Shown: piece by piece, positions 39,920 to 43,896 of the stretch
Layout of the letters: each line of letters starts with the position of its first letter
How positions within the stretch are numbered: the first letter of the stretch is position 1
Source: Escherichia phage vB_EcoM_G2248
DNA: 64,000 nt
Strand: one strand, 5' to 3'
Sequence record: MK327932.1
Notes under the pieces: generated by a model
Database searches by the model: none
What the model was told of the DNA's origin: nothing
The model's input: only the letters and a program-made list of their open reading frames with translations
Translations under genes and position numbers: made by a program

Positions 39920-40867
39920 TTACATCGCTAACAGAGAGTCCAGGTCATCCAGATCAGAAGCGGAGGAAGTACCGCCACCCAAGTCCAGAGATGCCATCAG
40001 GTCATCAGCGGAAGAATCGGACGCTGTGCTAGTTGCGGTAGTACCAGCGTCGAATGCATTCATCTGTGCATCAAAATCATCAAGCTGGCTGTTAATCGCT
40101 GCCGCAGCACCAGAAGCCGAAGCACCAGCTACCAGGCTTACACCTTTAACTTTCTTAAATTTAGCATCCAGTTCCTCGAAAGATTTAAACTGGTCTTTTG
40201 CTACGATAACATCAATATCTACCATGTTTTCGAACAGATATTTCTGGAATGCTTCATCTTCGATGTTCGGAATCGCTGATTGCTGCATGAAACGTGAATC
40301 ATCGTAGTTCAGGAATTTATCTACTTTCTTAGCTTTCAGAAGGAAGTTAGCGCCTTCGAACGGACATACGATGTTTACAGGTTTTTCGCCCAATTCCGTG
40401 TTTACGTTGCTCATTGCCAGAATCTTGTCATAAATTTTCTTACCGAAGCGGAATTTAAATACTTTACCTTCGTTTTCCGGCGCTTTCGGATCTTTCATTA
40501 CCAGAATGTTTGCGAAGTAAGAAGATTTACGCTTAACATCTTGATATTCTTTATTGTTGGTGTTGTACAGGTCATTTTCGCTAATGTATTTGCACACAGG
40601 GCAAGAATCAAAATCGCCGTGGGTGCTAGGGCAGTTTTCCCAATAATACTTACCATTTACTTTGAAAGAATGGTTTACAAGGTTGATGATCGGTAAACCG
40701 TCTTCGGTGCGTGCTGGAAGAAAACGAATCACCGCTTCACCGTTACCCGCCGCGTCAGTTTTAATCTTCCACTCTTTCGGATCTTCTTTGGAGAAGCCGT
40801 TGCTACCTTTCAGTGCTGCCAGTTGAGCTTGCAGTTTGGAAGAATCTTGACGACGAAAAATGTTCAT
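39920..40867 (-). CDS. 32: single-stranded DNA-binding protein gp32
   Basis: Zinc site [26 protein letters not shown] and acidic C-tail as in T4 gp32; start moved to MNIFRR. Confidence 0.9.
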
Positions 40868-40933
40868 AATTATACCTCTTTTATACATTAACTATTAATT
40901 TGCTAGATTATTATACAGATTTAAATTTACTTG

Positions 40934-41623: not shown

Positions 41624-41893
41624 TTAAATATCGAGAGTGTTGGTCGGTTCGTCGATCACTCCCTTCCTGAGCGTTCTATTTACTATACATTCTTGTGTGA
41701 TCTTGTCAATAATGGACACCGGAATATACTTCTGATAGTGACCATATTCTATAGAGTTTTCCTCTACAAACTGCGTTGTCGCTTCAAGATAAGTCAATCC
41801 CTCTTCAACAACCAGTTTTTCGATTGCAAGACCGTTTGCTGTTTTATTCGCGGCTTTTACCGCATGTTCATTAAGCATTGAACACCCGATCAT
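41624..41893 (-). CDS. 33: late transcription accessory protein gp33-like
   Basis: 89 aa; assignment mainly by synteny (59-33-dsbA). Confidence 0.5.
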   Translation of the reverse strand: MIGCSMLNEHAVKAANKTANGLAIEKLVVEEGLTYLEATTQFVEENSIEYGHYQKYIPVSIIDKITQECIVNRTLRKGVIDEPTNTLDI

Positions 41894-42146
41894 AGAGTTC
41901 TACCGCTTCGTCGCGTTCTGCTTCGAAGGTTTCGCGCTGTTGTTGGTGATACAGTTTAAACAGAATGCCCCACATTTTACCATCTACGCCTAATTCTTCT
42001 TTAGCACGCTGTTTGATCTCTTTGATCTTATCGCCATATGCTTCTTGAATTGTTTTCTGATCGCTGGCTTCTTTAATCAGTTGTGCCAGGGTATTTCCGT
42101 GTACTGCTTCGTCAAATACTACTTTTTCTTTTTTCTGTTCAGTCAT
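41871..42146 (-). CDS. dsbA: DsbA-like double-stranded DNA-binding protein
   Basis: 91-aa basic/acidic helical protein; synteny. Confidence 0.5.
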   Translation of the reverse strand: MTEQKKEKVVFDEAVHGNTLAQLIKEASDQKTIQEAYGDKIKEIKQRAKEELGVDGKMWGILFKLYHQQQRETFEAERDEAVELYDRVFNA

Positions 42147-42150
42147 AATA

Positions 42151-42750
42151 TTAACCCTCTTTCGTCATTAATTGAAAACCACGTTCAGCTTTTGAGATTT
42201 CGCTAGGACTTAAATCATCGCCGACATATTCTAGCATCATTTCTCGGATAATGTCAAGTGCTTTTTCATCACCTGATTTTAACTCGAACTCAAGTTCATA
42301 ATGAGCAGTGTCGCCCATTCCTTCGCCTACTTTGCCATAATAGAAAGTGTCTTTGCACATTTCCACTATACCGCAACCCATATCTAGAGTCAATGACTTG
42401 CGATATGTCATTACTTGCATTATTGTAGTGATATAGTCGGAGTTTACCCCTAGACTATCAATAAAATGGACGAACTCATCCCAATTTGAAAATGTCATTT
42501 CCTCGCGGTTGAATATTCCAGATTCATTATCACCCATTTTGACCATGATCTCTGATTTTCTACAGTCAAGTCGTGCATAAATTCCTTTTTGACGTAGTGC
42601 ATGGTCTTCGGTGTCATAATAAAAATCGTGTTTTAATATGTTATCACGGTCTACGAGATTGTACCCGTCATACATTGCCACCCACAAATCACAGATTGTT
42701 TCTACACCATCCTGTGAATGGGCATAGTATTTTAATTCAAGTTCTTTCAT
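42151..42750 (-). CDS. CYTH-domain (triphosphate tunnel metalloenzyme / CyaB-like) protein
   Basis: N-terminal ExExK (KELELK) and C-terminal acidic YELEFELK motifs; ~200 aa. Confidence 0.5.
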   Translation of the reverse strand: MKELELKYYAHSQDGVETICDLWVAMYDGYNLVDRDNILKHDFYYDTEDHALRQKGIYARLDCRKSEIMVKMGDNESGIFNREEMTFSNWDEFVHFIDSLGVNSDYITTIMQVMTYRKSLTLDMGCGIVEMCKDTFYYGKVGEGMGDTAHYELEFELKSGDEKALDIIREMMLEYVGDDLSPSEISKAERGFQLMTKEG

Positions 42751-42760
42751 ATGTCAACCC

Positions 42761-43708
42761 TTAGAACTCACCAATTTTCTGCAACATTTTAACTAACGCA
42801 TTTGTTACAAAATAGTTATAAATTTTACCGCGTGGTGCTGGTTTAGACTTTTCCCATGACTCCAGAATCTGAGTCTGAATATCATCTGGGATGTAATCGA
42901 AATCAATAAGTTCGCGGTTTTCGTCAAAGCGTCGTGATTCTTCCTCTGTCATCAAAGACTTTGGATCTTCGGCATCGAAAATTTGCTCTAACCATTTGGT
43001 CGCAACTGGTTTAGCTCGCTCCCCTTCCAGTCGAGAGATAATAAAATCACTACGACATTTGACAGAGGCTACACCGTCTTTTGCGTCACCCTTAACACAT
43101 TTTACCATAAGGTCTTTGTAAGGGCTACCATATTTGCATTTCTTCCATGCTTTCTGTACTGGCGCCCACTGTTTCACGTTTTTGTATTTGTGCAACTGTG
43201 TGTAGTCACCATCGCCGGAGTTGATCAGTACCTGGCGACCTTCTACAGAAAACTTTTTAGTTAATACAGCGATTATATCATCTGCTTCAACTTTGTCAAC
43301 CTTAATAACGTGATAAGGCATGTTCTCTTTAAACTCTTCGGTGATCTTATTGATCGCAGCAAAGATCATCTCCCAATCACGCGGATCTGCGTCTCGTTTT
43401 TCCTTACGGTTGCGTTTATAGTAAGGGGCGATATCACGTCGCCAGTAACCTTTGCTTGAATCAAAAGCAAGTACCGTAATAGGGTATTGCTCTTTGAATT
43501 TTGTCATATTATAACGCATGGTGTCAAGAATAAGATGACGGATCATACCTTCACTAATAAGGTCTTCCGGTTTAAAGGTATGCGAGATAGTAGCAATCAT
43601 AAGCTGAGACATATCAATCAAATGCACACCTTCCGGCAGTTTATCTTCTGGATCATCGAAGAAATCATTAAGTGTAGCGGTAGTTTTTGTAAACGGGTTA
43701 TACGTCAT
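42761..43708 (-). CDS. rnh: RNase H (FEN-1 family 5'-3' exonuclease)
   Basis: YWRRD, PYYKxNR, EADDIIAVL, SGDGDYTQLHKY, VKQW, C-terminal PRGKIY as in T4 RNase H. Confidence 0.9.
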   Translation of the reverse strand: MTYNPFTKTTATLNDFFDDPEDKLPEGVHLIDMSQLMIATISHTFKPEDLISEGMIRHLILDTMRYNMTKFKEQYPITVLAFDSSKGYWRRDIAPYYKRNRKEKRDADPRDWEMIFAAINKITEEFKENMPYHVIKVDKVEADDIIAVLTKKFSVEGRQVLINSGDGDYTQLHKYKNVKQWAPVQKAWKKCKYGSPYKDLMVKCVKGDAKDGVASVKCRSDFIISRLEGERAKPVATKWLEQIFDAEDPKSLMTEEESRRFDENRELIDFDYIPDDIQTQILESWEKSKPAPRGKIYNYFVTNALVKMLQKIGEF

Positions 43709-43710
43709 AA

Positions 43711-43896
43711 TTAAGTTCTCTCCACTCTCACAACAACAGTCTCATCAAACGAGTTAGATACTTCACGATCATACCCGTATTTCTCCATAACACGCAGAAT
43801 TGCATTGTTTAGTTCTGCGCGAAAATAATTGTAATCCTTATCAGGGATTCTGTCAACTACCCATTTTGCACCGTCTGACAAATCAACTTTAACCAT
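43711..43896 (-). CDS. hypothetical protein
   Basis: 61 aa, coupled to rnh. Confidence 0.4.
   Translation of the reverse strand: MVKVDLSDGAKWVVDRIPDKDYNYFRAELNNAILRVMEKYGYDREVSNSFDETVVVRVERT

Follow-up and report, generated by a model that had tools for sequence, protein, structure and literature searches.

The stretch of DNA analyzed here, the 64,000-nucleotide (nt) window from Escherichia phage vB_EcoM_G2248 (MK327932.1), belongs to Krischvirus, the RB49/Phi1 group of T4-like coliphages. On its minus strand lies an open reading frame (ORF) for a protein of 199 amino acids (aa) with a CYTH domain, set between a T4-type RNase H gene (rnh) and dsbA, with the gene for the late-transcription coactivator gp33 following; Pfam names these three neighbors, and the genes for gp59 and gp32 lie beyond them (Table 1). 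The spacing is tight. Ten bases separate the ATG from the rnh stop codon, four separate the CYTH stop codon from the dsbA ATG, and the Shine-Dalgarno-like AAGGG upstream of the gene is kept across 15 Krischvirus sequences. The 2.4-kb stretch around the gene is 95 to 97% identical to UPWr_E1, KMB43, Phi1, ECD7, and RB49. We conclude that the protein belongs to the CYTH / triphosphate tunnel metalloenzyme (TTM) superfamily, that it is most likely a triphosphatase-type enzyme, judging from its residues, and that its central part is a hypervariable cassette.

Table 1. Features of the CYTH gene and its surroundings, in window positions
Feature	Coordinates	Strand	Basis or remark
CYTH/TTM gene, 199 aa, orthologue of RB49ORF244c / phi1p245	42151..42750	-	ORF, Pfam, PHROG, RB49 annotation
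Shine-Dalgarno-like AAGGG, 7 nt 5' of the ATG, overlapping the rnh stop codon (42761..42763)	42758..42762	-	sequence reading
E3-L-E5-L-K7, ExExK motif, strand 1; YgiF E4/E6/K8 (metal site 2)	42730..42744	-	
Hypervariable central cassette, codons 10-150	42301..42723	-	nucleotide diversity, synonymous divergence (dS), allele identities
Y58-A-R60-L-D62, strand 3	42565..42579	-	alignment anchored on conserved Gly
K71; YgiF K69	42538..42540	-	
R82-E-E84, strand 5; YgiF R81/E83	42499..42507	-	invariant in family and distant CYTH proteins
R117; YgiF R126	42400..42402	-	
D134; YgiF D143	42349..42351	-	
E152-L-E154-F-E156-L-K158, strand 8	42277..42297	-	alignment to YgiF
S186-K-A-E-R190-G191, C-terminal plug helix; YgiF S190/K191/R194/G195	42178..42195	-	
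Candidate promoter TTGACA-18-TAGAAT, sigma-70-like, upstream TG, in conserved CYTH 3' end	42228..42257	-	consensus match only
Candidate promoter TTGACA-16-TATAAT, perfect sigma-70 consensus with TG, inside rnh	43272..43299	-	12/12 consensus match only
Short ORFs inside the CYTH gene	42258..42428; 42573..42764	+	
T4-type RNase H gene (rnh)	42761..43708		Pfam
rnh 3' part with ~45-nt mosaic patch	42851..42910	-	nucleotide diversity 0.21
dsbA	41871..42146		Pfam
Gene 33	41624..41893		Pfam
Gene 32	39920..40888	-	
61-aa ORF between gene 34 and rnh	43711..43896	-	phrog_3594

Membership in the superfamily is solid. The Pfam CYTH profile (PF01928) matches at 33.1 bits against a gathering score of 23.2 (E = 6.1e-8), with residues 1 to 191 covering profile positions 1 to 178 of 179; phrog_14893, a PHROG without a function assignment, matches at E = 1e-132, and an NCBIfam scan of the protein gave no match. 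An AlphaFold2 model built on 19 relatives (mean predicted local distance difference test score, 92; predicted template modeling score, 0.86) has eight long strands forming an antiparallel tunnel, together with three outer helices and a C-terminal helix that closes the tunnel. Foldseek places this model closest, among solved structures, to the TTM domain of the Escherichia coli inorganic triphosphatase YgiF (PDB 5a60/5a61; template modeling score, 0.76), and the closest PDB sequence is also YgiF, the sole match of the family profile and a weak match in a single-sequence search. That single-sequence search also returned the TriTu immunity protein (E = 0.14), a match that has no fold or family support and that we attribute to chance. 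In the structural comparison, YgiF and thiamine triphosphatase (ThTPase) were far better matches than a class IV cyclase. A sequence-only reading of this DNA had proposed the superfamily from a 199-aa protein with the motifs KELELK and YELEFELK. The ORF indeed begins MKELELK and has YELEFELK at residues 151 to 158, the Pfam match and the alignment to YgiF agree with the assignment, and the structural check that had been suggested finds the eight-strand tunnel in the predicted model.

The residue-level comparison with YgiF bears on catalysis. In YgiF, metal 1 is bound by Glu160, and metal 2, the one that activates the attacking water, is bound by Glu4, Glu6, and Glu162 (Martinez et al. 2015, PMC4641920); catalysis also requires Arg56 (PMC4641920). 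Residues were mapped by aligning the phage protein to YgiF together with eleven distant CYTH proteins, and invariance was judged across 19 members of its own family, the most divergent of which is 47% identical. The acidic motifs, which the earlier reading had expected to coincide with the catalytic residues of CYTH enzymes, do so: the ExExK motif falls on E4/E6/K8 of YgiF, and E152/E154/E156 fall on E158/E160/E162, so that E154 corresponds to the metal 1 ligand and E156 to a metal 2 ligand. R60 takes the place of the catalytic R56. The ExExK motif is invariant in all 19 members and in the distant CYTH proteins as well, and so are K71, R82, E84, R117, and D134. All the mapped residues, including R60, K71, R82, R117, and K158 of the tunnel and the acidic E152/E154/E156, are invariant within the family, and each YgiF residue tied to metal binding or catalysis by Martinez et al. 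2015 has an invariant phage counterpart.

Class IV adenylate cyclases (CyaB; Yersinia pestis 2fjt/3n0y) share the superfamily, the fold, and the two-metal tunnel, and several GenBank records label this gene adenylate cyclase. Three features mark true class IV cyclases (Vogt et al. 2021, PMC8233210): the first motif is lengthened to HFxxxxExExK, the first Arg of RxR gives way to a small residue, and the second Glu of ExE gives way to Ala. None of the three signatures is found in the phage protein. Just M1-K2 precede E3, leaving no room for the HF extension, and an in-frame TGA two codons 5' of the ATG rules out a longer N terminus. Arg60 occupies the position of the first Arg, although in the cyclase orientation an Arg there would be expected to collide with the ribose, and Glu156, aligned to YgiF E162, is retained where cyclases strictly have Ala. 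The absence of all three makes a hydrolase much more likely than a cyclic AMP (cAMP) synthase, and by the rule of Vogt et al. 2021 the protein is most likely a triphosphatase-type enzyme. Given also that YgiF and ThTPase fit the predicted structure much better, and that YgiF was itself once misannotated as a cyclase while having no such activity (PMC3440374), we regard a CyaB-like enzyme making cAMP during infection as very improbable, and the option of cAMP synthesis raised by the sequence-only reading falls away. Those GenBank records that call the gene an adenylate cyclase are very probably in error. Our finding mainly corrects the annotation, and the defensible name is a triphosphate tunnel hydrolase, with no substrate named.

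The best-supported mechanism, to which we give a probability of about 0.7, is that of a catalytically competent, stand-alone, metal-dependent triphosphate tunnel hydrolase. We imagine that the triphosphate group of the substrate would be bound in the basic tunnel, with one Mg2+ or Mn2+ held by Glu154, that Glu3, Glu5, and Glu156 would bind another metal ion, which would activate a water molecule, and that Arg60 would assist in removal of the terminal phosphate. The substrate class is suggested by strand 3. Tyr58 stands two residues before the first Arg, where the other aligned CYTH proteins have small or aliphatic residues and where thiamine triphosphatase has Trp53, which stacks on the thiazole (PMC8233210); Asp62 replaces the second tunnel Arg. 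Both residues are family specific. Together, they suggest that the substrate carries an organic group and is not bare triphosphate; a nucleoside triphosphate (NTP) or a related compound would be an example. Compared with the W/Y-x-R-x-R of the mammalian 25-kDa thiamine triphosphatase, a protein of a different lineage with 15% identity to the phage protein, the Tyr and the first Arg are present and the second Arg is Asp.

Several points weigh against such an enzyme. The fold is a prediction, and the residue roles rest on alignment. HMMER and MAFFT place strand 3 in registers that differ by two residues; we adopted the MAFFT register because a Gly preceding this strand stands four residues before the first Arg in most of the CYTH proteins compared, a spacing that G56 and R60 of the phage protein match. 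In the isolate G2494, the gene is split into two ORFs, given which it may be dispensable in the laboratory. In addition, E. coli pyrophosphatase supplies most of the cellular inorganic triphosphatase activity (PMC3440374), so a plain role of this kind is less compelling, and hydrolysis of inorganic triphosphate (PPPi) by the phage would seem redundant beside it.

This last point bears most directly on the possibility of a YgiF- or NeuTTM-like activity, in which the protein would act specifically on inorganic triphosphate or on short-chain polyphosphate and would clear PPPi (e.g., the product of deoxynucleoside triphosphate triphosphohydrolases) or trim polyphosphate. YgiF is specific for inorganic triphosphate, it is the closest protein both in solved structures and in PDB sequences, all its catalytic residues are kept, and two GenBank records label the phage gene inorganic triphosphatase. 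Against that, YgiF has 433 aa, with a linker and a CHAD domain, which binds polyphosphate, whereas the 199-aa phage protein has no CHAD match, although many of its distant relatives carry one. YgiF-type enzymes also have both Arg residues of RxR and a small residue two positions before the first; in the phage protein, R58 of YgiF is replaced by Asp62 and Gly54 by the bulky Tyr58. We therefore consider this activity unlikely, if still a serious candidate. Adjacency to RNase H, which removes primers, brings to mind an RNA 5'-triphosphatase acting on the 5'-ppp ends of primers or transcripts. The gene does sit within the rnh / 59 / 32 replication cluster, and TTM enzymes of eukaryotic viruses, which are RNA triphosphatases, appear among the remote structural matches; the phage protein, however, belongs to no Cet1-type sequence family and does not have that fold as its closest, and we think this role highly unlikely. 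Finally, the tunnel might merely hold its ligand. Phage sponges for signaling nucleotides exist in other folds, and a fixed pocket with a diversifying surface would suit a binder too. Yet a mere binder would not need four metal-binding Glu residues and a catalytic Arg to be invariant across the family, and a noncatalytic sponge seems to us scarcely probable.

No other element of the neighborhood varies nearly as much as the CYTH gene. In comparisons with RB49, Skers, and a metagenomic Krischvirus, identity is 93 to 100% for RNase H, DsbA, and gp33 but only 84%, 57%, and 58%, respectively, for the CYTH protein. Across the 15 Krischvirus sequences, nucleotide diversity is 0.21 to 0.29 over positions 42300 to 42720, compared with 0.01 to 0.06 in most of the flanking sequence, to which the two ends of the CYTH gene (its first 27 and last 150 nt) also belong. 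In the central 141 codons, dS is 0.3 to 0.5 for RB49-type alleles and saturated for Skers- and P0042-type alleles, versus 0.12 to 0.2 in rnh and the gene ends; the ratio of nonsynonymous to synonymous divergence (dN/dS) is 0.26 to 0.34 there, versus 0.04 to 0.11 in rnh and the gene ends. At least four cassette classes can be told apart (Phi1/RB49, P0034, Skers/P0039, and P0042), with 39 to 61% aa identity in the center, as distant from one another as alleles from different genera. Their C termini are 96 to 100% identical among the Phi1/RB49, Skers/P0039, and P0042 classes and 86 to 88% identical for P0034. Even with C termini 96 to 100% identical, allele classes share only 39 to 42% aa identity over codons 10-150. 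The allele of the window has the Phi1-type central cassette, not the RB49 type. This hypervariable cassette is new beyond the published annotation.

The invariant residues of the cassette stand at i/i+2 spacing on the strands, that is, on one face, the one lining the tunnel; only 6% of helix and 12% of loop positions are invariant. Their position on the tunnel face implies that selection preserves the tunnel. In the simplest reading, homologous recombination through the conserved ends of the gene swaps alleles that are old and deeply diverged; the active site is kept while the outer surface is free, or pushed, to change. The pattern is equally compatible with host-phage conflict and with a recombination-prone region. 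We also considered a diversity-generating retroelement or template repeat as the cause and rejected it: the window contains neither a second copy nor a paralogue, and the saturated synonymous divergence indicates old alleles, not targeted mutagenesis.

Variation is also found at other places nearby. The mosaic patch in the 3' part of rnh, where the rest of the gene has a diversity of 0.00 to 0.07, exists in Krischvirus as two main haplotypes and two further variants (Skers and L012). It does not covary with the CYTH classes: L011 combines the window-type CYTH gene with the other rnh patch, and RB49 has the reverse. The gp32 of the window is only 79 to 80% identical to those of RB49, Skers, and the metagenomic Krischvirus, compared with 93 to 100% for gp59, gp33, DsbA, and RNase H. 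Between genes 59 and 32, Skers has an HNH homing endonuclease gene (L002, 5802..6398), FL20 has a hypothetical ORF (L017, 3298..3594), and T4 has SegG; the window has just a 45-nt gap (40889..40933). Gene conversion driven by such endonucleases might be one source of the local mosaicism.

One can envision that the cassette classes reflect an arms race with the host, the enzyme being a counter-defense triphosphatase that hydrolyzes a triphosphate-bearing immune molecule (a modified antiviral NTP or a signaling nucleotide), with at least four cassettes maintained because hosts sense or inhibit the protein surface. The cassette is about five- to eightfold more diverse than the flanking genes, diverged alleles occur on near-identical backgrounds, and the surface changes while the active site stays fixed. 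The gene is among the probable early genes, and Tyr58 is consistent with a ring-bearing substrate. However, dN/dS is below 1 throughout, and, with the rnh mosaic patches and the variable gp32 close by, local recombination alone could produce the pattern. Neither PADLOC, at E values up to 10, nor NCBIfam gave a match to cataloged defense or anti-defense families; there is no known anti-defense homologue, and a literature search found nothing linking phage CYTH proteins to defense. We regard this anti-defense role, including the host sensing invoked for the cassettes, as rather improbable. The proposal of the sequence-only reading, that the phage may manipulate host nucleotide signaling or deplete a signaling nucleotide used by defense systems, is likewise speculative.

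We know of no phage CYTH protein with an established role, nor of any CYTH enzyme involved in phage-host conflict. Here, a core gene of a well-studied, easily grown genus of E. coli phages has its catalytic residues intact and a surface that diversifies far faster than its neighbors. It therefore offers a practical entry point to the question of which triphosphate compound matters in infection, and both the hypervariable cassette and the unusual Y-x-R-x-D strand are directly testable features.

The gene was present in all of the 58 phage records matching the region, all of them Krischvirus or labeled close relatives, and always between rnh and dsbA. RB49ORF244c, phi1p245, and the rest of phrog_14893 are orthologues in this slot, 84 to 97% identical and showing no difference in kind. 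In vB_EcoM_G2494 (L022, 301..896), the gene is annotated as two ORFs of 67 and 130 aa, which implies either a frameshift or nonsense mutation or an error in the sequencing; the 130-aa fragment forms a separate protein cluster, P0041, and is also a BFVD entry. When 1.84 billion representative proteins were searched exhaustively with a profile, only three clusters matched at E < 1e-30; after them, at E > 1e-16, came CYTH and CYTH-CHAD proteins of ordinary cellular origin. Metagenomic contigs carry the three phage-type relatives that are most distant (47%, 37%, and 33% identity), directly upstream of dsbA and gene 33, and one of these contigs also has rnh upstream; the next match after them is an archaeal cellular gene. 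A scan of IMG/VR for relatives yielded two loci only, both ordinary Krischvirus. Other stand-alone phage CYTH proteins (Aeh1ORF004c and those of Aeromonas phages 65.2 and D3, Ralstonia RP12, and uncultured Caudovirales) are only remote structural matches to the window protein (template modeling scores of 0.3 to 0.5; 9 to 18% identity) and were not detected by tblastn at E = 1e-5. Judged by its ORF number, Aeh1ORF004c lies at another genome position.

These data also bear on the history of the gene, which the sequence-only reading had described as inserted between dsbA and rnh and as having no counterpart there in T4. The latter is right, as the dsbA-rnh gap of T4 is only 8 nt. In the sense of a recent insertion, the description does not hold. 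The GC content of the gene, 0.38 to 0.39, matches the 0.40 of the window, and relatives as distant as 33% identity have the gene in the same slot, so a recent foreign insertion can be rejected; nor is there any sign of a recent capture of host ygiF, with just 21 to 23% identity to it. The gene is an old, syntenic resident of the slot in a clade of T4-like phages.

The assignment of the CYTH domain to this gene is already published. Nolan et al. 2006 list RB49ORF244c with "CYTH domain, 0.0026" and a CYTH match for Aeh1ORF004c (PMC1524935), and Iyer et al. 2021 describe CYTH triphosphatases scattered in jumbo phages (PMC7824862). The GenBank note for RB49ORF244c reads similar to ygiF, and PF01928 is already among the precomputed Pfam labels of the family in the protein collection. 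Our literature search found no activity or phenotype reported for any phage CYTH protein.

Expression of the CYTH gene is likely to be early, along with rnh and from host-type promoters, if the sequence matches are a guide. Between 41500 and 44100, there are 21 sigma-70-like promoter matches, compared with 7.7 ± 2.3 in shuffled sequences, an approximately threefold excess, and 17 of these are on the coding (minus) strand. Among strong candidates that would yield a transcript spanning the CYTH gene, the perfect consensus within rnh is the nearest; together with other candidates upstream of rnh, it would give early transcripts of this kind. As for the candidate in the CYTH 3' end, 13 of the 14 further Krischvirus sequences in the alignment carry it unchanged, and the remaining one, Skers, differs at one base of the -10 hexamer; matches at a similar position are found in the distant loci L004 and L008, whose coding sequence differs. 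Because it resembles an early promoter annotated in RB49, it probably drives dsbA, and it would be placed to drive gene 33 as well. The two short plus-strand ORFs inside the CYTH gene have no support. There is no terminator of note in the region, and an Rfam scan for an overlapping RNA element gave no match at E values up to 1.

Two further observations concern relatives and neighbors. The nearest cellular relative of the phage protein, P0046 (L009/L010, 4797..6606, archaeal metagenome contigs), is encoded by a stand-alone CYTH gene directly 3' of a gene of the phosphoribulokinase/uridine-kinase family, a pairing that recalls the kinase-TTM fusion of plant TTM1/2. On the other side of rnh, the 61-aa ORF has no Pfam match and is 95% conserved in Krischvirus. 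Its slot is occupied in the distant relative L003 by an unrelated 85-aa ORF (14% identity), and in FL20 another endonuclease gene fragment lies upstream of the 61-aa ORF.
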